From Catajapyx aquilonaris (lineage: Eukaryota): a stretch of 46,542 nt of DNA. The DNA is taken from the NCBI GenBank assembly GCA_000934665.2, contig KZ538813.1, forward strand, positions 1 to 46,542. The letters run 5' to 3'. The notes under the pieces are model-generated. The model had not been told where the DNA came from. It ran no database searches and saw only the letters and a list, made by a program, of their open reading frames with translations. Position 1 is the first letter of the stretch; every line of letters starts with the position of its first letter. Shown in pieces: positions 2,012 through 46,400 of this stretch. A program made the position numbers and the translations under genes.

Positions 2012-2542
2012 TCACAGGTTAGGTCGAGGTGCAGGCGGGCCAAAGTCCTAGAATAAATAATTGATTACTCATTTGTGGAAATGTAACGATGTGTACTGTA
2101 CCATTCGTCGAGGAAAGCGTGGCGGAGGTGTACGGTTACGTCGTTCTTCCTTTGACCTGTTCTTGACCACTTTCGAGTGTATGGCGCATGACACGCAGTA
2201 CACCAGGTGGAAGTACATCTTGGGCAAGGCATAAGCTGATGGGAATATGCAATTGCTCAATTTTATTGGTACTTTTAAAAAAATATATATAAGCTGACAC
2301 GTACTTGGATACACAGAGGCTTCCCTGAGATCGTTGATGGCTGCTATTTCGACCATGTTCCGGACCACGAACTTCTTGACAGCCTTGTCCTTCGGTACAC
2401 ACCGACCACAGTTGGTGCATCGTACTGCTCGGACGTGGCCTCGACCATGCTTGGAACGGCCGTTGTTGCGTCGCTTCGAAGTCTAAAACACACACAATGC
2501 ATCGTGATACGCTAAGGACAGCATACATATACAACATACCAT
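2012..2542 (-). CDS. RpS26: 40S ribosomal protein eS26 (RPS26)-like, 116 aa, divergent; exons 2542-2540, 2482-2305, 2235-2102, 2047-2012
   Basis: Spliced translation: [116 protein letters not shown]. All introns are GT-AG (57, 69, 54 nt). Zn ligands C23/C26/C74/C77 are intact. An ATG-only first coding exon is typical of animal RPS26. The first and last exons are less certain than the middle two. Confidence 0.92.
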
Positions 2543-2960
2543 TTCCAAAGAAGTAGTGTCCTATCACAATGAGAGTTGGATCTGGACTGAAATGGCTTTC
2601 AGGAATGCACTGCAGATTAAATAGACCGACCCATTTTACTGGAAGGATTAGACGTAAAGCAATACACAAAGGGTGTATTCGACAAGTAGATGTCACAATT
2701 TTATCCACTCACTGAAGAGTGAATTCATGACTGAAACGTAAAGAATAACTGAGCGGAATAGCATGGGATAGAATCAAGCAATATATTTTTATCTATACAT
2801 AATTTGGCAACAATTCCATGAAATACCATCAATTCCTAATACCATATCTTCATGCAAGCATGCGGTAGTTGAGCTTCAGAAGTGAACATATCTTAATCTG
2901 TCGCAAATAAGATGCAGTCATTAGATTCACGTCACCAGACATCAATTAGGGCAACGGTCA

Positions 2961-5546
2961 TCACAACTTGCCTTCGATTGGCTTTGACTGCTGTGCCACC
3001 TGTTGGGCCAACTTGGCCAAATGCTTAACCTGGTCCGAACTTTCAACTTCCTGGCGTTCCAGGTACTTCTGGCTGTTTCCCTCACAGGCTTCCAGAAAAT
3101 ACCTGTAGTTGACCATGATCCCACAGGAGTTTGTGAGTCCCCGAGGGGAAGGATCGGCCTTCCAGTTCAACCGCCACATCATGGCTCCATTGCGGAGATG
3201 GAAGTTTGCTGGAATGACAGAAATGGGCATTACATCCGTATTACAATTACAACGTTCTCGTTAATGGTAATTACCTACGCTATCCAGTGCGTACCCCCTT
3301 CTCTTCTCAGTATGCAAATACTGTGCGCATAATCTCATTAACGGAGTTTCCAGCCTGCTTGACACGGCTTCGTCCTGGAACCAACTGTTGAGATCTATTT
3401 GCCGTCTGAGGCAGCTCCAAAATGCTTTGGGTCCTTCTTCGGTGACTCTCAGATCCTCCCGCAGTCCTGCCATCTCCGACTCGGTCAGCAACGTCGTGTT
3501 TCCTCGCTCTGCATCGGCCATTTTGCTCATCAACCAAGACTTGAAGCCAGGAACCGGAGAGAGGCTGGAAAACTGGTGCATCTTTGGAAATTCTGACTGG
3601 AGCTCCTTGACCACACGTTTTATGAGGTAGTTTCCCAGTTCTATACTCTGCAAAAGTGAAAGCACAAAATCACATTCGATACTCGCAATGCATCTCAGTA
3701 AGGTACAAACAATGGCAATCATTTCCTGCCGTAAAATTGAGTGCTGTGTAATTAATTACCTGCAATCCCTTCTGCGTGGAAGTAATGGAGTAAAATATTG
3801 CTGTGCTTATAAAATTAGGGTCCTCCACTTGCGGTGCTGCTGTTGACGATGTGCTGTCACCTGAATTTACAAACTGCACGTTACGAACATTCAGGGTTCA
3901 CTTTCAGGTCGATAACCAACCTTCAAAGCTGGAGAACCTCCTGGACATCGGATTACCCTGGAACATCCTAGGGTTGACCACAATACTCTTGATGGAGCTG
4001 GATATTTCCTTGGTGAGAGCAGTGTGCAGCACGACCACCGGCTCTCCTGGCATACTCCCGTGCGTGAACACAAAGCATCTTCTGAATGGGCCCACTCTCC
4101 TCTTCAGGTCGGTCCAGTTGCGCATCGGATGGACTGCCTCGTATTCTGACACCTTCTGCAACATGTCACACCTGCAGGGATATCGTACAGCATGTTACCC
4201 GATTTTACATGTAATAAAATATTGCTCACCTAGATTGCCAGGTGACCCTCTCAAGTTCAAGGAAACCGACGGAGAACCACAGAGTCAGCAGGTCTCTCAG
4301 TGAGGTGTTGAGTGCCCTGAGATGAGGGGAAGATGGGGCATCAAAGGTCGAGGAGGATATGAGGTCGAGGAGATCGGTGCGAAGGTCCACCAGGAATTTG
4401 ACCCCTCTTTCCACCCGGCCGATCTGGGCAAAGAGCCATTGATGCTGCGGGATGAGCACTTCACGAAGGTTTTCCTCCGCCTTAACGACATGAAACTCCC
4501 CACGATCCTAAAATGTTTGTAGAGGCTGATCATTATCATAAAAAACGATAACGCAACATGTAATGTACATACACTAAATTGACGGTAGTAATAATAAAAA
4601 TAAGTTTGCACTACGACTAGAATACAGATGTAAGAAGTGTTAATGAAGGTCACATTACATCACTTCTTTTTGTTTGATTTTTTTATCCATTTTAAAATCC
4701 CGGCTCAGATTCAGTCATCCTTGCACATGCAATGGTGGCAAATTATATGCTTTATGTAAGATCTACAGTATAACTCAACTATTTCTAGTCTTCAAAATGC
4801 GACAGGCAACAATCCTGATAAACCAAGCTGTAATTAAGAATTTAAAATGTGGTCTGACGACCAGTCTCGGAACAAATTGGCGTAACTCGAAGGCATAATA
4901 GCACCACGTTTAATGTGTTGTTTCCGCACCTGTGAGTCAAGGATGGCTTTGGCTAGCTGTGCGACTTTTGGATGCTGGACTCCAAACTCTTGCGCCAAGG
5001 TCTGCAGAAATACGTGACGTCCAGCGTGGTCCAGGCTGCTGTACACGGTGCACAGGTTTCGTACCTTGCCCTGCGAAGAACCAAGCACAATGAGGGTCCA
5101 ACTACATAACAAGTCACTTCAGGCAATGCGCAAAATAGTACCTCAACCACAAGTGAGCTCGTGTTCTTCTCCCTGAATTGCAGCACGTCTTGCAACAAGC
5201 ATCTGGCATCTTCCACCTCAAAGGGAGGTCCACCGTCCCCTTCGCCATCACTACCATCACCAGGAAACGGGCTGGAGGATCTGGAGCCTGCCTCGGACTC
5301 TTCTCTTGTTGTGTGCAGGAACCGAAGAGGAGCCAGGAAGGACGAGTTGCTCGGGGAAGATATCGGCGACAGTGGAGCACGTGACTTCCGTATTGTTATA
5401 GGACTATTAGAGGCAAGAATGGATGTGAAGAGGGACGGGGAGGTGCCGGCTAGGTTGTCCAAGCTGTCCATTGTTGTGGATGGAACGAACGCCTGGTTTA
5501 GAGGCAGCCTGGCTATAGGCCAGTGGCGGACAGAGCGGTGGAGCAT
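2961..5546 (-). CDS. MLYCD: Malonyl-CoA decarboxylase, ~598 aa (586 aa with the alternative donor); exons 5546-5142, 5070-4930, 4507-4230, 4171-3921 (or -3957), 3860-3760, 3647-3275, 3208-2961
   Basis: Recognisable MCD segments: [98 protein letters not shown]...[19 protein letters not shown]. All junctions are GT-AG and phase-consistent, and the protein ends in -GKL. The start codon is less certain. Confidence 0.95.
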
Positions 5547-6029
5547 CGTACGTTGGGCTGTTTGGAAAGGATGCCAAGTTTTTTTTAAAAATAGCTACAC
5601 ATCATCAAGGCCGCAGGTGGGACTATTGTTGTAGGGCAATGTACCTGTGGCCTTGTGAAGGTCTCGCTACTCTGGACACACATGCAGAGCAAGGTTCGAC
5701 CTCATTTTTAAAAATATTACTGCCACCTCTGGTGCCAATAATAAACCAGAATGTCTCAATCCATCCTACTAAATGTCAACGAGGCCCAACGCAAAGGTGA
5801 CTTTGTACAGTTTTGCAACTTGTAATTGCGAAATGTTTCAACTATAACAACTGGAGTAAGAAATTTAATGTAATTATCTACTAACTTTTAATGATCATCA
5901 AATTTTAACACACTCTTTGTTTGCTTTTACCTAATTGTGTGTGGCTAATTTTCAATTGACAGCAATTGCAAAGAATTCATAGATTATACTATGAACCTAA
6001 CAAGCCTGTTTAAAAAAAAAAAAAATCAC

Positions 6030-7542: not shown

Positions 7543-7860
7543 ATTATTAATAACAAAATTGTTCAATTTTTTGGGGGCACGTTAACAGGCCAGCAATAGC
7601 GATAAAATCTCCTTAAAAATGTAATATATATTAAACCATCCTTTATTTTACACAACTGCAGAAATAATTTGCTAAGCGCATGATAGGTTACATATCAAGA
7701 GAGATTTTTTTGGTTAAAAAATCAAAAACTTTGCGCATAAATAAGACACTCTTGTTTGATAAAACTCTTTTGCGGTGGAATGGGGGGGGGGGGGTTAAGC
7801 GCAGGTTCATTTTTTAGTCTTTCGAGAAGGAAATTGAATGGGGAGAAAAAAAAAGACGAT

Positions 7861-8356
7861 TTAGATGGAGAGGCCGAAGACGGACACGATGCAGTACATG
7901 GTCTTGTTCTCCCAGCGTACGGTGCAGCTTCCGTCCGTGTTGTTGTCCCAGTAGCAGGAGCTGGCCGTGTGCAGACCCGCGCCAGTCTTCTGCATTATGG
8001 TGCAAGTCACTGGAAATGTAAAAACGACATGTCACAACGCAAAAACCATGAAGCGCCAACAATATGTACATACCGATGTACTTGAAGGCCTTCTGCAGCT
8101 TTGTGAGCGATCCCAAGCAGGACTCGACGACACCGTTCGTCCACTGGTTCACCTTGTTGTGAGTGTACGCATTTCCACCAATGTTGCTCTCGATGGCTTC
8201 CTTTATTATGTTGCTTATCTCATCCGCAACAAACTGGCTCTGTAATTAGCAATAATTAGCCGTTTGAGTAACTGCGACCGGTTAATACATTAACCGCAGT
8301 TTTGTTCAACTAATTAATCCGGATACTGTCCAACTTACGTCCTCGTCTGCGTCCAT
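7861..8356 (-). CDS. DYNLT1: Dynein light chain Tctex-type 1/3 family (Dlc90F-like), 110 aa; exons 8356-8339, 8239-8074, 8009-7861
   Basis: Spliced translation: [110 protein letters not shown]. Donors are gtaagt and gtatgt, acceptors are cag. Confidence 0.96.
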
Positions 8357-10155: not shown

Positions 10156-11713
10156 CTAGCAGCAGCTGGATTTTGCCGGTTCGGCTTCAATCAGTCCGAA
10201 ATCGTAGCTTGTCGTAGCCTGCTGCGAGAACCCGACTTTTATTCCATCCCAGCCATCCTCGACCCTGTATTCTCCTGACAAGACCCTGTCATACACATCC
10301 TGAGTCAGCGCCCTGAAGGCCTCCTCCACGTTACGACCAGACCTGGCGGACGTCTCCACCCACTGCATCCCATGCTGGTTGGCCATCTCCCGCGCCTCAT
10401 CAGCCGACACCTCCCTCATGCTTGAGAGAGAGGTATCCAAATCAGTCTTGCAGCCGACAAGCACAAACGCAGGCCGATGTGGCTCCATATGCCGTCTGGC
10501 TTCCATCATCCAGGTCGGTATGTGCTGGAAGGACTGGCGGTTGCACACATCGTACACCAAGAGCGCACCCACCGAGTTGCGGTAATACGACTTCGTAATG
10601 GAGCGGAAGCGTTCCTGACCAGCCGTGTCCCATAGCTGCAGCTTTATCCGGGTTCCATCCTTGACTTCAATCAGACGAGCGAAGAAGTCCACACCAACAG
10701 TCGGATCTGACACCTGGAATATGTCACAATTAGTACATACGCCATGGAAAGACATCACTTCTTATCATAATCGCTCATAGTAACAAATTGCACCTTTCCC
10801 TTAATTAAGCCTTGTTTGCATGTGAGCGATTTGATCAGCGATGCATCAAATTGTTTGGGGCGAAAGTAACAATCATGGTAACAATAGATTTTCGCCCCAA
10901 TTGGATTCATCTCTGATCAAATCGCTCACATGTAAATGCGGCTTTACAGACATGCTGATCTAACCATGATTACAACGACAGTTTCAAAGAGGAGTCGTGT
11001 AATCATTGAGGTTACAAGCGTGCTATTCATTGCGATCTTTCCGACAATGTTTTTTAGAGGCGCAACAATAAGTTAAAAACTGGTACAATAAAGTAAGTAC
11101 AGCTGTACAGTAAGTACGCCACAAAATATTACAATATTGCAGCAGGAAAACAGTACAAACAAAGTTTCCTGACACGCCTAATCAGCATTGCTGAAAACTG
11201 CAAATATTAGCACAAGTATCTATCATGTGCTTACTGGCATAAAAGTCCGACACGCAATCTTGATAGCAAATTTCATCAGAATTCGTCACAATTGAAATCC
11301 TGTATGTGAGACTAGAGAGAGTAAATTGCGGTTGGCGAATTAAACCCTTGGCAATTCCTACTTTCCATCATCGTTTCCTTTTACATTTCAATTGCAACAC
11401 TACGTACTACATCGCTCAAAAAAATGGGAGACGATTCTACATTGGAATCTTTTTGAGTGATATCGTACAAATGGTACAGAGCAAAATCTCATCCTGCGGC
11501 AAGCCTCATGTGCTACGACGACTCGCTTGGACTGGTTAAGCGCCTGCTTGCGGCACAGTGCGACGGATGCGATGCATGTACGACCACCGCTGTTGAGATG
11601 CTCACCTCTGCGAACTTCCCATCGGTGAAGTACTTGAGAAGCGAGCTCTTCCCAACGGTGCTGTCTCCGATGAGGATGAGCCTGAACTGGTAGTCGAATA
11701 TGGGCTCCACCAT
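10156..11713 (-). CDS. Rab39: Ras-related protein Rab39, 221 aa; exons 11713-11606 and 10713-10156
   Basis: MVEPIFDYQFRLILIGDSTVGKSSLLKYFTDGKFAE|VSDPTVGVDFFARLIEVKDGTRIKLQLWDTAGQERFRSITKSYYRNSVG... contains the P-loop, DTAGQ, the Rab39-type GCKxD, ETSAR and a C-terminal CC prenylation motif. The phase-0 intron is gtgagc...ccag. Confidence 0.96.
10808..10943. mobile_element. Tourist/PIF-Harbinger-like MITE, copy B, in Rab39 intron 1
   Basis: TIRs agccttgtttgcatgtgagcgatttgatcag / ctgatcaaatcgctcacatgtaaatgcggct, flanked by TTA on both sides (10805-10807, 10944-10946), plus an inner inverted repeat ttggggcgaaa / tttcgccccaa. Confidence 0.82.
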
Positions 11714-11968
11714 CTCTCTCTCTGCATGTGTACTTACCGCACTACCATTACTCCCAACCAAATGAGGGTGGCATGAGGGTGAGGGGCGTGTGTGTCTGTG
11801 TGTATATGCGCGTCTGTTTGTTTGTTTGTCTGTCTTCAGATCAGAGCACCAGGAGGCGAATAAGAAGGGAGGAGGAGGAGGAGGAGACCTTCAGAGTGAT
11901 CAGCTGATGCGCGTGACTCCTTTTCCGCCTTCATTTACACCAGGAAACGACCAGGGTTTGGCTGGGCG

Positions 11969-12117: not shown

Positions 12118-12885
12118 AACGCGCTGAAACGCGATCCAGACGTGGTCCAAACGCGGTTGAGACACGTTCCATAGCGTCGTACTCGTTCACTCTTATTCGC
12201 GGTCCAGAAGCAGTCGAGACGTGGTCCAAACGCGGTTGAGACACGCTCCATAACGTGTACTCCCTCACTCTTAGTCGCGGTCGAGACGCGGTCCAAACGC
12301 GGTTGAGACACGCTCCATAACGCACTCGTTCACTCTTAGTCGCGGTCGAGACGTGGTCCAAAAGCTGTTGAGACACGCTCTATAACGTAATCGTTCACTA
12401 GTCGCGGTCGAGACGTGGTCCAAACGCAGTCGAGACGTGATCCAGACGTGGCTTTACAGGCGGTCCAAGACGTACTCGTACACTCTGAGACGCGATCGAG
12501 ACGTGGTCCAAACACGGTTGAGACGCGCTCCATAACGTATTCGTTCGCTCTTAGTCGAGGTCGAGATGCGGTCCAGACGCAATCGAGACGTGGTGCAAAT
12601 GCAGTTGAGACGTATGGCTTAGACGCGGTCCAAAATGTACTCGTTCACTCTTATTCGCGGTCCAGACGCAGTCGAGACGTGGTCCAAACGCGGTTGAGAC
12701 ACGCTCCATAACGCGTACTCGTTCGCTCTTAGTCGCGGTCGAGATGCGGTCGAGACGCACCGAGACGTGGTCCAAGCGCGGTTGAGACGCGCTCAATAAC
12801 GTAGTACTCGTTCATCACTCTTAGTCGCGGTCGAAACGCGATCGAGATGTGGCTCAAACGCGGTTGAGACGCTGCTTAGATTGTG
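12118..12885. repeat. Hierarchical tandem array: 11-bp subunits grouped into ~65-90 bp higher-order units
   Basis: Subunits GAGACGYGGTC / CAAACGCGGTT / GAGACRCGCTC followed by CATAACG..TACTCGTTCACTC and TTAGTCGCGGTC. There are roughly 9-10 higher-order units with variable subunit counts. Confidence 0.95.
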
Positions 12886-13817: not shown

Positions 13818-13861
13818 NNNNNNNNNNNNNNNNNNNNNNNNNNNNNNNNNNNNNNNNNNNN
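13818..13861. other. Assembly gap (44 N)
   Basis: Run of N followed by a G tract. Confidence 0.99.
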
Positions 13862-26400: not shown

Positions 26401-29400
26401 GTCCCTGAGTTTATGGAGACAAGGGTAATTCTAGAGTTTCTAGACCGACCACCGGTGCTCCTTTGTAATCTAGCTGTTGAGGACCCACGAAATCGAGAAA
26501 GATTTTTTTTTTGTGTGTGTGCCATTTCTCACCTCCGAATTTAATTTTTTTCGTATATATATAGGGTGTAAATTCATGGAAGTTCAATATTCTTGTTTGT
26601 AATGATCAGAGTCCTTTCAAACATTTTCGCAGCATATAGCAGCACCAGCTATTATTGAAATTCCTGGTAACCCACCCGACGAGTTCTGAAAATGACAAGA
26701 CTCTAACTAACCCTCCCCAATTTTGCCTCCAGAGAGATTGTATGTCTCCGGCTAAAATCCGCTTAGTCGAAATGAGTAATTTATCCCTTCTACTGCTGTC
26801 AGTGTTTTTTTTTGCTCAAAAAAAACGGGGTCTACTGCCGCTGCATAGTTTTTTTTGTCTAGCTCTATTTTAGCCGCCTGGAAAAAGCAGCATGAGGGCT
26901 CCCCCTGAAAAAGAAGCGTCCTCTGGAAAATGCAATTGAAAAGTGACGTGCGTGAGCTGGATCCATAAAGTTGTGAGAGGCGAAGAGTCGGACAGGAGCT
27001 GACGTGTGTTGTCCCCGGATATACACCATCCGGGTGGTGGTACCCGGATCCTGGAAAAAAAAACTTACATGAGAGAGAACTGAGCATGATTGGTGTCCCG
27101 CTGGGAGGAAAAGGGCTTGGCAGGTTTTGACCAGACTTTTCTCCGGGACTTGTCTCTTGCTTTTTTAGTTTAAAAAAAAAAAACATAAAATGAGCTGGCC
27201 GGAAAGAGCTGGCCGGATGGGCTAGTTCTCATGGAGACGGTTGGAATTTGGCACAAACCCTGGTTCAATCTCGGAAGGGGGGTATTAATCAAGGGAGGCA
27301 TAATTGCATACTTGCTGCTATTAGAGAGATTGGGGCAAGCAGTCGGACTGTCCTCGAAGGTATTTCTCCAGATTGGAGATGGAATGAACTTAATAGGCGG
27401 GCTTGATTACACAAATTCCGGATGATTAATCTCCGGTCAATTATTGAGGTCATATCCACAGGAGCAAAGTTGTCTCCCTCTGCTTTTCTGGACCACTTAA
27501 ATGTGAAACAGAGTGTCCCATTCGGAGGCACCAAAGCGGATTGGGGAAAGGCGAAATGGACGTCCAGTTTGAAAGGGGGGTGTGGTCCTTTCCCCTGTGG
27601 AAATTGCCAGCAAAGTGATGATCTCGCTCGATTAAATCCGCCACCTTTCCCTGTAAATTACGTCGCCATCGGATATTCCTCCTGACATGTTTATAAACTC
27701 TGGCTCCAGAACCAATCTCCGGGACTGGGGTTTTGGGGGGAGCTCTTGCTGGATTTTAGGGGCGGACATACAGTTCAAAGTCCCCTGGATGACCTCCCCC
27801 CCCCAAACTCTAGGTGGACATCGTCCTTTAACCCCTCTCTTTTTTTTCGGTGCTGTCTTACTTTTTGGGCGGGAATCGGATTTGTTTCGCTACCGTCCAG
27901 ATGAAACACTAGGAAGTATTGACTTTGGATTGAGCTGGGGCGAGAAGAAGATCCTTGCCATTCGTTTCGGGGCGAGGTTCTTACAAGAGGGGCCTTGCCA
28001 GACCCTAATGTGAGCCAACGGAAAAGCCTGGGCCCCCGCCGAAAAAAAAAAAACGAAAGAAAGAAATAAGAAAATGCCTGCCTCAGCACAGGCAATCCTA
28101 GTTCAGCCAACCTGACTTTTTGGGAGTCTGTCGTCGCCAAAAAAGCTGCCAATTTTTTTAAGGTTGTAAAACTTTAATTTTATCAGAAGCACTATTGGCA
28201 AACAAAAAAAATTAATGTCGAATAACTAGTGTAAAAAACAGGCTGACTGCGGCAAACCCAGATCAAAATTCCATTAGACCGGGGGATTTGACAGCATTTT
28301 TATGCGTTTCCCCTTCCCCCAGCGTTTGCCGAATTACAACCATCCACGGCTTCTATTTGCCAGTTGATAAGCTTTATGAGGACGCTTATCAGATGGAGTT
28401 CTTTGTGGGCTTCATCCTTGTTTGGGTTAATCATGAAGAAGTTAATGCCACGAATACGTCAGATAGTTGGTAATGGAAACTTTGTGCAAAAAAATTCTGG
28501 TGAATGTACGCTCCATACATTACCTCTTTGGCGTATAAATAGGCTGCATTAAAGGTGAACTCTCTCTCTGTGCAATGCAAAACTGTGAGTGCAGCTAATG
28601 CACGGCTCGTTGCACAAAAAAGTACGTATAATTACATTGCATTGCACAATGGAACTGAAGTGCGCAAATTTTAACTCTGGAACTGCTAATAACTCACCAG
28701 GAGCACATAATTTCAAAATTGAGTTATGTAATGAAATTAATTATTTTTGGATTACTTACATTAATTAGTGCTTTACAGTTGAATAATTAAAAAATCTCTG
28801 TAGAAGGAATCCTTCCAACATTTTTTTCTCATTTTTGTGTGTGTGCGTTTCAAGAGTTTGTATATATAGTCAGGAGGAATGGCCTCCACCCAAATTTCTG
28901 TCGGGTTGGATTCATCACGAGGCTTTGGAATAGTCACGTTCGGAACCGCCCATAAAGATTGACGGCAGAGGAATGAAGAATTCTCCAGTCTGCTCCATGC
29001 AATCCGGGCCCCTCCTGATGATCGGGAGCCTCTGGAATTAGAGCACTCTTGTGATGGAAGGAACCTCAGCTCCTCATTTATGCCAGCCTTCACTCCTTTT
29101 TTTTACCCACGTTTGAAGGAGAGCATTGATCTCATCAACACTACTTATGCAGTTTTTTTCCCCCCTTTCATTCAAAGCCCACTGTTGCAGAGATGACAAA
29201 AAAAGGCTGTGGTCATATAGAGCTGGTGGTGCTATAAGAAAGAAATATCTTCCAGTTTTTTTTTGTGTGGGTTCCCCCGTTGGTCATTTTTGCCTCGACG
29301 TCCCATTGTGTCACACTGTGCACTTTAATTCGTCAGCCGGAGCCCCCCGGAATCTGTTCATCGCGTTTCTTATCACGGTTTTCCCCCCCTCCGTGCTTCT

Positions 29401-34008: not shown

Positions 34009-36355
34009 AAGGACACAAAGGGGGGGCCAGCTGAATATTAATAAGCTCCCCAGACGCCTTGGTATGCTGCCTTTCACCATTTTACAACCCTCCTTCAAAC
34101 CCTTTTACTTGGGGCAGTATGCTGTGTTTTAAGTTAAAAAAAATTGTTTCAAGGAAATGAAATATGAACCGATATCACTTTCTTGAGCGGATCATCCGGT
34201 GTCTATTTTAGCTCAATGTTTTATGGGGTTATTTTGCGTTTGGATGTTGGGTAGACCATGCGCACGTCACTTGTGGCGCTAAAGTATCTCATTGGGCGGG
34301 CAGCCTGTAATAAATTACTTAACTCCAGACACTTTCAGGGGAACAATCCTCCGGGCCTGGGCCTGCTGTGCTACACCCAGGGTTTTAGGCGTATATACCG
34401 GTGATGGATTAGTAGTGTAAATCAATGTGCGCCTTTTTGCATGAAAAGTAGGATTTCTAGTTGACTGGTTCAAAGCCTGATGGAAAGTTGTGTATATGTA
34501 ACAAACATCCAGGTTGAAATTGTATTATTATGCTCGCAAGTGGATTTAGCGCCAACTGTGCTTTATGCTGGCATAAATTTTGATAACCAGTGATGGTTTG
34601 AAGCCCACCCCTGCTGCCTAGCTCTACAACAAAACATTATGCTCTCTAATTTTAACTGACATTATCATCGTTAGCTTTCTTTTTAGGTTTCGAGCGCGTA
34701 TGATTGTGGCGTGTTGCTATCTCAATATTGTGGGGTCCTGCATTGTTGTTAACTCCCAGTGCGTTAATGTGTACATGGTGCGATATTCCAACACTTAACC
34801 TGAAAGGGCTGCCTGACGTATCCTAAAATCCCGTGTCATTGAAACAGTTTATGCAACGATTCACCTCAAATCGCCGATTTACACTGTAAAACGTTCGTTA
34901 AAAATAATATAGCTGCACTTCTGTATTTAAAAAAAAAACAGCGCCCATTTTTATTGAGCAAAAATATGCGAACTTAATCTATCTGGATAGTTATAGTCGA
35001 ATCATCTGAAAATTTATTCAGCGACTTTTACTTATCCATTATTATAAAAGGCAGCGTTTAAAAAAAATGTTTGTCCATTAGCTAATAAAAACAACAGTTG
35101 CTTATGACCAATGCTGTATATTTCTCACCTGTCAGTTTGTGCGAAACTAGGTTGCAATTGGCAGGCAAAAAGTCAAAAGGGGGGGGGGGTCTTATTGGTA
35201 GGGGCCAANGGGGGGGGGATCTTATTGGTAGGGGCCAAGTCCCCATTGGGCAGATAAAATCGATTTCGGTTTCAACTGTGCCTCAGCATCCCTGCTGGTT
35301 GTGGACCTCTCTGGAGGGCACGTACTCTCTCCAATAATAAAAAAATTTTGTAAAAAAAAGTGTGGAAAAAAAGGAAGGGAGAGGGGGGAAAAACCGCAGT
35401 GGTTAGAAGGGGGAGATGGCATGATAATAGAGTGCAATATTTGTAATAAACTCGCAAATGGTGCGGGCGGACTATTCGATTTTCGGGAATTGCGGCGGGG
35501 AAAGTTTGAGTTGGAAAATGATTGAATTTTGGCCTCTCTCTGGTCGGTGCATATACAGTGTGAGTCAAAAATTATGCAGTTAACACTCTTGTTGTAATAT
35601 ATGACTCACCCAGTTGGCTTCGAGCAAACTATTGGTGCTGTCGTATATCGGAAAATATTTTCTCTCCAAAAAACATTTCTGCAACCAGGAAGCAGGAGAC
35701 GAAAGGCTATCTGTTGCATCTTTTTTTTTTGGTTTGACGCACGTTGGCATGTCAACCGATCGATGGCGACATTCCTGCGGTTAATTTGAATCCAGCTTTA
35801 TTAGAGCTTTAAATATATGTAGAGAGAGCGACGGATTCCATCTTGAGTGATCAATGGAAAAGACGCTTTGGTGGGCTTTGGGAGGGTGTTAGAGAGAGAC
35901 GCAAAATAAATGGTTTTGCCTTCCTGCAAACCACCCCCTTGGTGGAAACCAGGAAGAAAACTCTGCCTTGTAAAAGTCGACGCCCCCTCGAACCCCCCTT
36001 TTTTGGGGTCAGAAAAAAAACATGCATCAAGGGAGACGGTTTACTGGGGAGGTGGGGGAGAAAAGAGGCCCTTCTAGAATTAGGCTGATAAAGGTTCCCC
36101 GTCACCAATCCACTATTTTTCAAAGGGGGGGGGGGGGCTCTCTGTCAGGACCAGGCATATGGTCGAGGAAAAAGAAATACGTCTTTGCCCCAAGATGAAG
36201 GAAACACTTTGAGAAGGAATGCGAAGAGAAGCTGCAACGATAGATGTGTGTGGGTGCAACATATATTAGTGACAAAAAAATGAATTGGATCACCCTGTAG
36301 AAACAACGTCACAATGTATGGGAAAATTAGATTTAATTTATGACTAATATAGTAA

Positions 36356-40175: not shown

Positions 40176-43100
40176 TAAATATTTTACTAATTTATGAAAA
40201 TGAACTCTGATTTATTTTTAAAATTTGATTGTTCGTGCCAATGACATTATTATTTATGTCCTATTATTTAAAGTAATATATTGTCGAATAATTATGCGAA
40301 CGATTTTTATCTAATATTTTTCTTAAACATTGTTCAATCACGGTTGGAAATTTTCACTCAAATTCACTTCTGAACCCCCCCACATCACACTGAGACAATT
40401 CCACTCCGGATTTTCAATGGTCTTGTCCCTCCCCACTCTTATAACTTGCAACTTTGAGGCGCCAAATTTTCGTTCCGACGAGACGTGCCCCCCCCTTCCG
40501 CGCACTTCCAAATTTTATTTTCCCGATACTGCATGAGAGCTCTCGAGAACCTTTCCCTCGTTTTATTTTTTAACTTTTTTTTTTGTAGTCCAAGTTGCAG
40601 AAGTAGTTGAAACCTTTGCCTTGCCCAAGATGTATAGCAAAAGACTTGGCAAAGTTGCAGCCAGCGACCTTGTTGATGGAAAGAAGAGGCAGGCTGGGGG
40701 GAAAAAGGAAAGAAGGCGAGAGAGGAGCAATTAGCCACGTCGTCCCAAAGGCAAGAAGAGGGGGGGGGAGGCCCGCAGCATTAAAATTCAATGGAAGTGA
40801 TCACAGTTGGGCTAGAGAAGCGAATATAGTCGTTCTAGGCAGTGCTGGAAGAGCCTTGCACTCGCTTCAATATTGCCCCCCCTTTTCCTTCCTTGCCATT
40901 TGGCCTCCAATCGAAAACTTCCTTTGCCAAGGAAGTTAAGCAAGTTTTTTTCCCCCCTCCTTCTCCTTCTTCTTCTTCTTCTTCTCCTTCCCGAAATTTC
41001 CTCTTCGTAATGTGTCCAATTCTCCCGCTCCCAAAAGACCTTCCCAATCAAATACTTGCTTTCCTACCAGCCGCTCATAATTTAGAGCCTCGGAAGCTGT
41101 CGTCAGGAATGTGTGTAGACGACGGGAGACACGAAAAGACAAGAAAAAGGAACCAGGAGAGGAAGAAAAAAAATGACTAATTTATTCTTTCTCGTCTGGT
41201 CGACTCTTAACAAGGGATTTAATAAGATGAGAGCCAATCGTGAGAGCCAGCGAGAAGATTGGCGTCGAATAGGGAAGAAAGTAAAAAAAAAAAACTCCAG
41301 CTCTCGGAATGATAGAAAGGAGGGGGAAAAAAATCTTATTACTGGAACGCTTGAAATACTGCCGCAATCTGCGTTTCCAGCAAATAATGCTTCAATGAAC
41401 GTCGCCGAATTGCATTGGAGAAATTTTCTGTCCCGGAAATACATATCCGATGTCAGAGCTAGAGAGGAAAAGGGCGGAATTTGAACCCTTCCAAAAGGCA
41501 TGTGTGCCAACGAAACTTGTCCAATTTCTGAGAGAATTTACAGTGCACCGTGTAATTAGAAAAGTTGCTCTATTACTATAGAGTATTGTACGCTCCATTA
41601 ACTGCACTGTGATATTGTGTAACTTATGAAGTGCTCTACACCTACGCTGGGTAAAATAATGTAAAGAGAAAGGACTGTCAGGGCTGCCTCTCCTGGAGCA
41701 ATAAGTCTTCATTTGCTGCACGTAATTATTCCAATTTGCGAGGTCAAATACCCTGCAGTTTGTATATGGCAGATGGACGTATTGTGCTCTAGCGGACAAA
41801 TATACATTTTCGACAGCTGTACTTGAATATATCACCATCATGATAGTAGCCTACTTCCTATACTTTTTCAGTTTAAAAATAATCATTATACTTTTTTTAA
41901 AGGCAGGTTATAGTGGGAAATATTGTGAATTATTTTTAGCAAGTATTTATTGCTTTAGAGTGTATGTTTTAATTTTTAAAGCACCTATCTTACAGTAGGC
42001 CTACTTTTCGAGTGAATTAACTGAAACTTTGTATATTTTGTTGAGTAATTTTCGCAAACTGCGCGGTGTGCATCGAGGCTAGTTATCTTTTAAACTAATA
42101 AGCTAGCTTAATTGCAGCCCTGCCACAAATGAGCGACACACACTGCACCGCCCCCCAATTATGCAATGATATGATACAATAATGCCAAACCAGTACCTGT
42201 CAGTGATTCAAGCCACTAATCCACACTACGCCCTGGCACTTGCAGCTAATTATGAACCAAGCGCTCACCCTGAGATTGGCTCAATAAACTAGGATCCTGC
42301 TGGGTTTATATGCTGTACACATGTACAAGGTGATCTCTGAAGAAAATATTCACTCTGAAAAATATTCAGATTTTAATTCTCTTGTGCTGTTAATTTCAGC
42401 AGTGAATCACCCTGTTGGATCAAAATCGGTTTGGGTGGTACCAGATTAGTCCTTTTTCGGGTTTCTGACTTGGATGGGGAGGGCTAACTAACTGGATTGG
42501 GACGATTGTGGTCGCGGCAAAGAGAAGTACAAACGGCTGGGGTTGTTTTCCATACTGTCAGCAAAATTGTTTCGCATCATTGAGGATAAAAGATCGCGGT
42601 CCGCGGGATTAAACCTTTTCTGTCTGTGATGTGTGGATGCTGCTCTGCAACATTGGGATCGATTGATGGCTTGGGACTAGGAAGTGCACCAGCCAGTCAG
42701 TCGGTCCAACCTCAGCGTTATTTTTTCCAGCCAGTTCCAATTGCCAGAATGGACCTGCTACAACTTTTTTTTTGCACACACAAAAAAATGAGCGAGGCCT
42801 ATTGAGGCTCAGGAATTCGCGAAAACTTTGTTAAGGCTGCGCGGCACGTACTGGAAAATCGGATCTATCAGGGAAGTAGCTCGCCAACTTTCATTTTTAA
42901 TCTCAGCAACACTGGTCAGGGTTCACTGGATTGCTAGGAAAGCCTATACAAAATGTACTAGCACATAATAATATCCAGTAATTACTGATCAAGCGCACTC
43001 ATTGTCAGCCAATTTCAGCCTAAAGTAAATTTTTCTGAAAATGGCAACCTTTTGCCGGCGTCTGATTGGCCCATATTGAATATCTTTCAAAATGGCAACA

Positions 43101-43438: not shown

Positions 43439-43455
43439 NNNNNNNNNNNNNNNNN
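43439..43455. other. Assembly gap (17 N) between a G tract and a C tract
   Basis: Run of N. Confidence 0.99.
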
Positions 43456-46400
43456 CCCCCCCCCCCTCTTTCCCTTTTAAAAGCTCGCACATTACCTCGG
43501 TTGAGTTACGCACCGTGCGATACCCTCATTTTTAATTTCACACCCACCACAGTCTACGACCAAACTCTCACTTTCTGCCCGAAGCGCAATTATTCCAACT
43601 TTCCTTGGGTAGAAATTAAATTACAATTTAGGCCCATATAGGAGCAGATTAGGGAAATGAAGTTTCACACGGTGCAAAGTTGGCGGTGTCGAGCCGAGTG
43701 AGCCTAATGAGATAACAGCTGTGTGTTGGTGACGAGTTATAGCAGGTGCGGTCCTATAGGCGATTAGGCTCCCAGACTTGGTGATAGCCCCAGCCACCGG
43801 TACAGAAACAATGTTCGGACAAGGGCTGCGGCAAGAGGAGAAAATCCAATTTCCCAACCAGTGAGAGACGGAGATTTTGTTGAATAGTATTTTACACACA
43901 AAAAATAGGCCTTTTTATACTTTCATTGATGCATTGTATAGTGGAATGAATGCGATGTGAACTTACTAGCGGTTGTCCTCAGCACGTGCGGTATTTCCCC
44001 TCTCGAAAGGAACCACTCAAAAGGTTTTGCATCGAATTAGCCTCGCACTCGGTCTATAGCAAGAGTAACATTGTAGTAGTCTCGCAGGTGTCTTCAAAAA
44101 GCTCCGAACAATCCGGACAACCCGGTTAAAAAAAAAACTTTTAAAGGCTGGTTGATTGGGTTGGTTGTGGGGGATTCGAAGATCGATACTTTGCCGGAGT
44201 GATGATCGAGGCGGTCCCACACCATTTGTCACGATAGTCTCTGAAAACTTTTTTTTTGTCTAACTGGATTTCACCTAAGGGACACTGGCCTATAGATATT
44301 CATGCCAACTCTATGAATTTGGCGAAATTATGAAGCTACTAATATTAGGTTGCTATCTAATATATGTCTGATTGGGATGTGAGAGTGACTCAAAAATTCA
44401 TCCATAAAAGCCTCAATGCGGGCTGCAAATTAAAAATTTCACATCATAAAATATTAATGCGTAGTTGGTGTGTGGTATGGCCAAATCCTGACCACAATTT
44501 TGGAAAGAGCGTGGGTCTCTCGAGAGGCCTTTTTTTTACAGCTTTGCCCTTTGGCTTGATCAGGTCGGCAGCCGCAGGCATAAATTCTGCTTTGGTCAAG
44601 TAAAATTTTCAAGTCCCTTAATTTTCCGGGCACGCTATCAAAATTTTAGTGCCTACTAAAATTCGACATATCCTTTCTTTAATGAGCTGTGTTGTTAGTT
44701 GCACTCTATTTGTGTTTGACTGTTACGGTCCGCGTTATATGATCCTAGATGGGCGAGTTTGAATTTTTTTTACCACACCTTTATGCCCTTGCTTTATGAT
44801 GGTATGTGTATAGGGAGGGGGGGTTAGGGATGAGAGAGATCCTTTTGATGCGTGGCCTTCCCCAGGAATTCCAGATATTGTCAGCCCAGGTCGCATCCCT
44901 ATTTGCCCAAATTTACTGCGGCTGCTGGCCACCGGCCTTTGAATAGAGCTGGCGATAAATCACGCCCGCAATGTAATAATATGTGCACAAAAAAAGAAGC
45001 ATAAAAAGCGGTGTCCTTAGGTTCCTGACGAAATAATTCAAAGATGCAAGGTTTACAGGTCATATCGTCAGGATATGCTGCTTTGTATTAATTCGCTTCC
45101 GTCATGTCGTGCCTGCATATAATTCATGAATAGGTAGCATACGCCATCTAGTGATTTCCTTCCCAACTTCCCAGTTGTCCGGTACAATATTGTGCGCTTA
45201 ATAATTGTCGCTAATTTTATTAATATTTTCTTTGTAAGTGTGCTTGTAACTACGTGCTGCTGAAAGTAATCTCCCTTTTTTGGAGTCCTCGTTTTAATAA
45301 GGATGTAAATTGGATTAAGCCTTTGACGAAAATCTGAAAGGCCTATATAAAAAAAACTAAGGTGTATGCCGCCTTTTACCAGTCGTCGTCGTCTTTCCGC
45401 AGCTAATTTAACTAACGGCACCTCGAATTTCTGCAGCCTCTCTCCTGACTCCTTGTGTAATTGAACGCCGCAGCAGAAGCACTAAGACTCCAGGCATCTA
45501 GGAGTGAAGTTTCTCTGAGATGATCCAAAAAGGGCTGCGGCCAAGAGCGATATTTTGGAAAGATGAAGATGAAGAAGAAGAAGAAAAAAAACGGAAAAAG
45601 AAAAAGACGTGAAAATTTGCAAGGCCCCCTTGAGTCACTTGAGAGTTAAGGAGTAGAATGGTCAATTTACTCTTCCCTTTGATGTCCTTTCTTCATTAGC
45701 ATCCGGAGAATATCGCTGGCGGAATTATTTAAGATGCAAAGGATATACCGGCAATGTACTTAGTGTCTCGCTTGCTAGATTTTTTTTAACAAATTTTTTT
45801 GGGCGGAAAATTTTGGAAGAGAGAGGGGAATTTAATTGTCATCCTCATTTGTATGTGGACCAACTTTTCAATGTAAATTGTCCCGAAAAACAGGGGGCCA
45901 TGTATTGTCAGGCTGCTGCCTGCAGGCACTATTAATTGGTCGGGATGCTGCTGCTGCTGCCAACTAAACGTACACAAAATGCTCGTAAAACATTTCCAGG
46001 TTCGGTGTCATAATAACAATGAAATTTACGGGATCGTTTTTAATTTCCGTCGGGTTTTGATAGCAACCAAAAAAAAAAAACTGGCGAAATATCTGTGTTG
46101 ATTTTTTTCGACAGAGCGGTTTTTCGCCATCTGGGAGTTAATCAAAACAGAAGCGATAAAAATGTGTTATGCTTTTTTTTTTACAAATTTAATGGATGTC
46201 TCGGTACGCTATTAAATACGAATTTGGTGCAGTTGTTTGGTAGTCGAATGGTTTTTTNATTCAGTTCTCTTCAAAAGATCGATGGATTTGGAAAGTCAAA
46301 TTCGACCTTGGCGTTTCCGAAGCGATGAAAGCGACTTGTGAAGCAGTTGTAGAGCAAAAAGAGATGAAAAAAAAATTTGGGAAGTTCTATCAAGCCGAAT

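Follow-up and report, generated by a model that had tools for sequence, protein, structure and literature searches.

Does the ribosomal protein eS26 (RPS26) encoded in this stretch of DNA represent a working variant that is kept by selection, or a spare copy that is drifting away from its family? The window, which here means the whole stretch of 46,542 nucleotides that was analysed, carries on its minus strand at 2012-2542 an eS26 gene with substitutions at positions that hardly vary elsewhere. The original prediction saw in it a paralog, perhaps tissue-restricted, that could change the selection of mRNA. We consider it fairly probable, at roughly 60%, that the gene is a selectively kept and ribosome-entering minor paralog, which stands beside a more canonical and apparently more abundant copy.

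The gene was found to be intact. Its four exons give a spliced coding sequence of 351 nt and a protein of 116 residues, with no stop or frameshift in the 116 codons; all three introns are bordered by GT..AG, and their G+C content is 29-39%, compared with 54% in the exons. The 5' UTR comprises at least 2543-2580 (minus strand, as for all features of the gene), according to the piece at 2540-2580, free of mismatches, of a spliced contig from X5, the one RNA-like run among the public sequencing runs aligned; the true start may be further upstream. The coding part of exon 1 consists of the ATG only (2540-2542), and the X5 contig joins 2482 to 2540. Intron 1 (2483-2539, 57 nt) is in phase 0 directly after the ATG, and is removed in X5 and kept in the DNA runs X1, X2 and X4. 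Exon 2 (2305-2482) encodes residues 2-60 and the first base of codon 61, and contains the first CxxC (C23, C26), D33, the helix with M44, I47, I50, N51, D52 and R54, and Y59. Intron 2 (2236-2304, 69 nt), in phase 1 in codon 61, is also removed in the X5 contig. Exon 3 (2102-2235, residues 61-105) contains the stretch Y62-A-L-P-K-M-Y-F-H70, the second CxxC (C74, C77), H80 and K85. Intron 3 (2048-2101, 54 nt) and the coding part of exon 4 (2012-2047; 11 residues of a proline-rich tail and the TGA at 2014-2012) are predicted from the GT..AG borders and from the tail, which is typical of eS26. With intron 3 retained, a stop would follow after 13 codons, at 2069. A candidate polyadenylation signal, AATAAA, lies at 1958-1963, about 50 nt after the stop. 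A tblastn search of the window revealed no further eS26 pieces besides this locus; one weak match at 40597-40773 (E 0.002, 36% identity) looks like chance or low complexity and was rejected. The whole window gave 0 Rfam matches at gathering thresholds.

Membership in the eS26 family is clear. The frame reading through exons 2 and 3 matches the Pfam family Ribosomal_S26e (PF01283) with 155.2 bits (E 9e-46; the cut-off is 27), and each exon matches independently (exon 2 alone, 90.8 bits; exon 3 alone, 64.2 bits). Solved eS26 chains were matched in 71 distinct cases, the best being 9qql_F3 (E 8.9e-43). Together with the coordinates and the intron borders, this family match bears out the original prediction of an intact four-exon eS26 gene with all Zn ligands. 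The Zn cysteines C23, C26, C74 and C77, which are found in 120, 120, 119 and 119 of the best 120 homologs, respectively, are all kept, as are D33, D52, Y59, Y62, P65, K66, Y68, H80 and R100. Like canonical eS26 (PF01283; chains 9qql_F3 and 7oyc_a2), the protein is of the 116-residue length class, has the CxxC...CxxC Zn ribbon, and retains the PPPRF stretch and the proline-rich tail. In published descriptions, eS26 contacts uS11 via D52, Y59 and Y62 (PMC5148605), D33 holds an Mg2+ needed for binding (PMC8880767), and cryo-EM places H80 and the C-terminal tail, up to A107, in direct contact with the mRNA (PMC13334024). Every residue published as a 40S anchor or contact (D33, D52, Y59, Y62 and H80) is present in the spliced window protein, the mRNA-contacting H80 being unchanged.

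The substitutions are nevertheless unusual, as originally claimed. When the window protein was aligned with the best 120 of 1158 homologs, five of its states (V36, R54, F69, H70 and K85) were found in 0/120, and others were rare (M44 in 4 homologs, I47 in 1, I50 in 5, N51 in 3, M67 in 1 and V72 in 1). Position 36 is I in 120/120 of these homologs and V in the window copy; position 67 is L in 118/120 and M in the window copy; position 70 is K in 119, Q in 1 and H in none, and is H in the window copy; position 85 is R in 117 and H in 3, and is K in the window copy. States of less than 5% frequency number 12, compared with a median of 2, which places the window protein third among the 121 rows, after a protist-like tandem form (34) and a fungus (14). 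The stretches quoted in the original prediction, [11 protein letters not shown] vs [23 protein letters not shown] vs Y(V/A)LPKLYVKLHY, were recovered exactly in the alignments, VVKNRS against VVRNRS agrees letter for letter in the alignments to solved eS26 chains, and His at position 70 and Asn at position 51 were both seen. The motif 62-YxxPKxYxK-70 is thus incomplete: Y62, P65, K66 and Y68 are present, and K70 is replaced by His. Three of the five positions of the segment ESS1 (68-72) are changed (F69, H70 and V72), and the helix that flanks D52 is changed on both sides (M44, I47, I50, N51 and R54). Judged from the sequence, the changes are rare or unique yet chemically mild, and fall in three places, namely the uS11-contact helix, ESS1 and K85.

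The distribution of the changes is informative. At the 53 columns that are fixed in at least 118 of the best 120 homologs, the window copy changes three (I36V, L67M and K70H), all of them mildly, whereas among the remaining 51 columns it departs from the majority state in 20. For comparison, none of the 53 fixed columns is changed in 98/120 of these homologs, and three or more are changed in only 2. This sparing of fixed columns is a pattern of apparent constraint, not of decay. The closest of the best 120 homologs is 80% identical (83/104 positions), and the median identity to these homologs is 74%, compared with 82% among the homologs themselves. In a quick maximum-likelihood tree of the window protein and 42 sequences picked from the best 120 homologs (named taxa and P0069), its end branch measured 0.44, about 7 times the median of 0.063. 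No starred clade of this tree contains the window protein, which is attributed to the shortness of the protein and the length of its branch. An ortholog with the same substitutions was not found among the best 120 of 1158 homologs.

Two of the homologs deserve comment in their own right. P0069, an eS26 from a 514-nt contig, shares R19-A20, G27, V41, I47 and P60 with the window protein and keeps K70, R51 and R85; it may belong to a related lineage or may show recurrence of some states. P0003, the top database match, is a 218-residue model in which two ordinary eS26 units of fish type follow each other in tandem, flagged at its source as a possible contaminant, and it scores high because it matches twice.

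The clustering of the changes on partner-facing surfaces (ESS1 and the helix by uS11), and not in the core, is what might be expected if the eS26-like protein had been neofunctionalised and acted away from the ribosome, for instance by binding RNA or as a regulator. However, every residue with a reported part in holding eS26 on the 40S subunit is retained, and the protein shows neither an extra domain nor a signal or extension. An extraribosomal role is therefore considered highly unlikely, and the reading of a paralog that enters the ribosome is retained.

Is the gene used? The X5 run comes from another sample and another study than the DNA runs, its kind and tissue are not on record, and it comprises 85,611 contigs (31.8 Mb). 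One X5 contig of 323 nt follows the window from 2132 to 2580 with 0 mismatches and joins 2235 to 2305 and 2482 to 2540. The introns skipped are of 57 and 69 nt, the ends of the 57-nt intron reading CT..AC on the plus strand. Because these joints are present in X5 and absent from all three DNA runs, X5 was read as RNA-derived: the window eS26 gene is transcribed, and its introns 1 and 2 are correctly spliced. The X5 contigs leave 1741-2109 uncovered, an interval that includes exon 4, intron 3 and the 3' UTR. The case of an unexpressed gene, which the original prediction had raised against itself, is contradicted by this mismatch-free spliced contig. The pyrimidine stretch CTTCTTT (2547-2553), proposed as a partial TCT/TOP-like element, does lie 5 nt upstream of the ATG and inside the transcribed contig. 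It is not the 5' end of the observed transcript, since the spliced contig extends 27 nt upstream of it.

Upstream of eS26 on the same strand lies a gene for malonyl-CoA decarboxylase (MLYCD; window 2769-5600, minus strand; PF05292, E 1e-27 for 3261-3755), an exon of which is at most 57% identical to any match, with arthropods on top. Less than about 190 nt separate the end of MLYCD from the start of the eS26 transcript downstream of it, and an X5 contig begins at 2769, probably at the MLYCD 3' end; the intergenic stretch that should hold the eS26 promoter is accordingly very short. Word depth in X5 was 22.6 for the contig beginning at 2769, 49.8 for the window eS26 copy and 432.3 for a second eS26 copy. 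Contig depth is a poor measure of expression, and the approximately 9-fold gap between the two eS26 copies is a hint that the window eS26 is the minor one.

This second copy was sought in public sequencing runs, four of which (X1, X2, X4 and X5) were aligned at 80% likeness. The DNA runs X1, X2 and X4 share a single sample, and the window assembly itself may derive from X1 and X2. A separate contig of 1361 nt with a second eS26 copy was found in 3/3 of the DNA runs, at depths of 35.9 against 34.7 for the window locus in X1, 29.6 against 20.8 in X4 and 37.6 against 29.1 in X2, that is, at about the level of single-copy DNA. The second copy aligns with window 2352-2484 (exon 2, 133 nt) with 23 mismatches and 2 gaps, corresponding to about 83% identity, and with window 2166-2200 (exon 3, 35 nt) with 5 mismatches. 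Its central 82 nt, the site of most of the odd residues, stay unaligned at 80% likeness, so that about 30 residues are readable. The 15 differences listed for X1 and X5 fall mostly at every third base. A rebuild of 19 codons revealed 18 changes in 57 bases and only 2 changed residues, HVRAV in the window copy becoming HVKPV in the second copy. The second copy has K19-P20 and R85, where the window copy has R19-A20 and K85; the assignment of the usual R85 follows from the loose end of the second copy beyond 2166, which reads V-R-N-R-S-R-E-E-R-K. The existence of a canonical-type partner, on which the idea of a paralog depends, is thus supported by three DNA runs and one RNA-like run, with HVKPV and R85 where the copy is readable. 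The two copies have in common the uncommon states G27 (13/120 of the best homologs) and E91 (6/120), and these shared states, together with the equal DNA depth, argue that both copies belong to one genome.

In favour of the opposite view, that the window copy is the only eS26 of the organism and its odd residues are spread through the lineage, are G27, E91 and N94, which also occur in the other copy or in pancrustacean eS26. That the gene is the sole RPS26 of the genome, a case also named in the original prediction, is contradicted by the presence of the second locus in 3/3 DNA runs at approximately single-copy depth and in the RNA-like run, and by its different intron structure, its K19-P20 and its R85. 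The probability left to a sole copy is negligible.

The surroundings of the gene were also inspected. Further on from MLYCD, at higher window positions, are an exon of a Tctex-1 family dynein light chain (7814-8245, minus strand, E 8.4e-10) and a Rab39-type GTPase with at least two exons (10156-11890, minus strand; Ras family, E 5.6e-43). Identity of the Rab39 exon is 70-73% to insects from many orders and about 60% to crustaceans, and reaches 84% with one transcript-derived protein; this gene gives the best clue to the organism. From these neighbours and from the eS26 tail states, the organism is judged to be probably a hexapod, one that lacks a close annotated relative in the databases searched. 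Two G+C-rich tandem arrays of related units adjoin each other at 12213-12834, immediately upstream of the 5' exon of Rab39, one with a unit of 65 nt repeated 3.5 times (88% match) and the other with a unit of 89 nt repeated 3.9 times (69% match); they sit in the most G+C-rich stretch of the window (0.537). In the half of the window from 26000 to 46542, the long open frames at 26752-27228, 41392-41850 and 45068-45481 gave no Pfam match. Runs of N at 13818-13861 and 43439-43455 indicate that the window is a scaffold with gaps; single N letters occur at 35209 and 46258, and none is near the eS26 gene.

A scaffold of this kind could in principle hold foreign DNA or a chimera of two loci, and the runs X1-X3 may be source data of the window assembly. 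Yet single contigs of X1, X2 and X4 each span 1700-2900 with 0 or 1 mismatches and at the normal depth of the run, and X5, from the other sample and study, contains the spliced form and both flanks without a mismatch. The neighbouring MLYCD, Tctex-1 and Rab39 are animal genes, with Rab39 closest to its insect counterparts; E91 and N94 in the tail of eS26, which recur in pancrustacean rows of the alignment, fit pancrustaceans. An assembly artefact or contamination is accordingly regarded as very improbable.

What is the relationship between the two copies? The gap between the aligned pieces of the second copy measures 82 letters, whether taken from the DNA contigs or from the RNA-like one, whereas the same interval in the window measures 151 letters, of which 35 + 47 are exonic and 69 intronic. 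The equal spacing in DNA and RNA-like contigs indicates that the second copy is without the intron at codon 60/61. The two kinds of contig part company before exon 2, where the second copy has an acceptor-like ...CAG at the end of its DNA sequence and ...AAAAATG in the RNA-like contig, a divergence indicating that the second copy keeps the intron after the ATG. Inserts of 11-38 residues, attributable to read-through, were found right after residue 60 in 11/120 of the best homologs (P0004, P0005, P0006, P0008, P0009, P0014, P0021, P0042, P0048, P0085 and P0089), indicative of a widely shared intron site; both the intron after the ATG and that at codon 60/61 are at sites common to other eS26 genes. 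The three introns of the window eS26, at sites common to other eukaryotic eS26 genes, thus agree with the earlier proposal of a DNA-level duplicate and show that it is not a retrocopy. On this comparison of gene structures, the divergent window copy appears to be the one with the ancestral structure, and the canonical-sequence copy the one with the derived structure, which could have arisen by intron loss or through a partly processed origin.

Several observations bear on selection and age. In the 19 readable codons, 15.5 synonymous differences were counted on 15.7 synonymous sites, which is essentially saturated, whereas dN is 0.06. Over the whole 133-nt piece the divergence is lower, 17%, and still amounts to about half of the third positions. 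When unconstrained substitution of the window eS26 coding sequence was simulated (4000 trials, with indels and splice sites ignored), the frame stayed open in 21.6%, 6.2%, 2.4%, 0.75% and 0.15% of trials at 0.1, 0.2, 0.3, 0.5 and 0.75 substitutions per site, respectively. The saturated sites, the simulation and the sparing of the fixed columns together point to an old duplication, its age being estimated from 19 codons, and to continued purifying selection on the window eS26.

These results have to be weighed against the view that the window copy is redundant and drifts under relaxed constraint, with low expression, no role of its own and perhaps loss ahead, and that its odd residues are tolerated since the canonical copy supplies nearly all eS26. 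Such drift would agree with the lower X5 contig depth of the window copy (49.8 against 432.3, a weak measure), with an end branch 7 times the median, and with the lack of an ortholog of the same states among the best 120 of 1158 homologs. It would also agree with the passages of a Drosophila study according to which copies of ribosomal protein (RP) genes seldom keep coding capacity and expressed paralogs are mostly dispensable (PMC12704716). On the other hand, the frame, the start, six splice borders, the Zn ligands and the contact residues are intact in spite of nearly saturated third positions in the readable stretch. A neutral frame would have stayed open in at most 2.4% of simulated trials at 0.3 or more substitutions per site, and only 3/53 fixed columns are changed, all conservatively. 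Drift without a role is possible, though we hold it to be unlikely.

For a paralog maintained by selection, the following course can be proposed. After an old duplication, purifying selection would have held the frame open; the product would fold and dock at the normal eS26 site of the 40S subunit, and would present there a less basic and more hydrophobic ESS1 strand and a modified helix on the uS11 side. The altered surface would face the reported approach of eIF3, of the 5' stretch of the mRNA and of the escortin Tsr2. mRNA analogues at positions -3 to -9 were reported to cross-link to eS26 residues 60-71, K66 and/or K70 being proposed to touch mRNA phosphates and the motif to meet eIF3 (PMC3326325). 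ESS1 (68-72) and ESS2 (99-119) were described as the eukaryote-specific segments that bind Tsr2 (PMC6131548). Effects of the window eS26 on eIF3, on the 5' mRNA stretch and on handling by Tsr2 are plausible.

A stronger version of this proposal holds that an anciently kept variant enters the 40S subunit and that its re-made ESS1 (Y-F-H-L-V for Y-x-K-L-H) and helix alter eIF3 retention, 5' mRNA contact or Tsr2 loading and release, giving rise to a distinct ribosome population. It includes a swap of roles between parent and daughter, in which the locus with the ancestral introns became the variant and the intron-losing copy took over housekeeping. We regard this combined version as rather doubtful. 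Published work weakens the step from an altered motif to a changed mRNA selection by the window eS26, which the original prediction had taken. A mutant with five alanines in YxxPKxYxK (Bulygin et al. 2022, as summarised in PMC10380927) was tolerated in yeast and human cells, and was described there as shifting polysomes and eIF3 retention and altering the translation of selected mRNAs. Since replacement of the whole motif by alanine is tolerated, K70H may matter little. The results quoted from a systematic study of Drosophila report no specialised function for noncanonical RP paralogs, which were mostly dispensable; the one RP paralog that was required was interchangeable with its canonical partner, and few new RP copies kept coding capacity (PMC12704716). 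Because of this precedent, an extra or differently regulated supply of eS26 seems to be favoured over a distinct translational output as the role of the window paralog.

The case is of interest for several reasons. eS26 is among the few RPs with experimental links to mRNA choice, through the Kozak position -4, stress release mediated by Tsr2, and eIF3 retention via YxxPKxYxK. If selectively maintained, a natural paralog with K70H and a rebuilt ESS1 would be a ready-made experiment on the role of that surface, in a lineage of animals whose RP paralogs are mostly regarded as a means of adjusting dosage. Should the copy prove only a low-level spare, it would still show how far eS26 can drift at nearly fixed positions with its anchors kept.

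How does the window eS26 compare with known systems? RP paralog pairs are already known, and what is notable here is the loss of K70 and the apparent swap of the copy that keeps the ancestral intron. RpS5b and RpL22-like of Drosophila are reportedly noncanonical RP paralogs of insects. As with the noncanonical paralogs of Drosophila, the window eS26 is a duplicated RP gene that is coding and transcribed beside a canonical copy. Its intron-bearing structure fits a DNA-mediated origin, the class of Drosophila RP duplicates that was described as rarer and on average older (35/269 classified events; PMC12704716). Unlike the Drosophila paralogs, it is here the canonical-sequence copy that misses an ancestral intron. 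No description of an arthropod eS26/RpS26 paralog was found in a non-exhaustive search of open-access full text.

Engineered eS26 mutants (the five-alanine mutant, and RPS26dC in PMC13334024 and PMC10201367) were described as viable with an altered exit-channel face, and as shifting the translation of mRNA subsets via eIF3 retention and Kozak/TISU effects (PMC10380927, PMC13334024, PMC10201367). The window variant alters the same face. Of the five motif residues replaced in the five-alanine mutant it changes only K70, and it differs additionally at M67 and F69, which are x positions of the motif, and at the neighbouring V72. Unlike RPS26dC, it keeps the full-length tail, as known here from the predicted sequence.

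The present eS26 pair is also comparable to RPS26A and RPS26B of yeast and to the eS26x/y sets of plants, in that the genome has more than one eS26 gene and all are predicted for the same 40S site. The yeast and plant eS26 paralogs are nearly identical in sequence, whereas the two copies of the present pair differ at residues that are otherwise nearly invariant.
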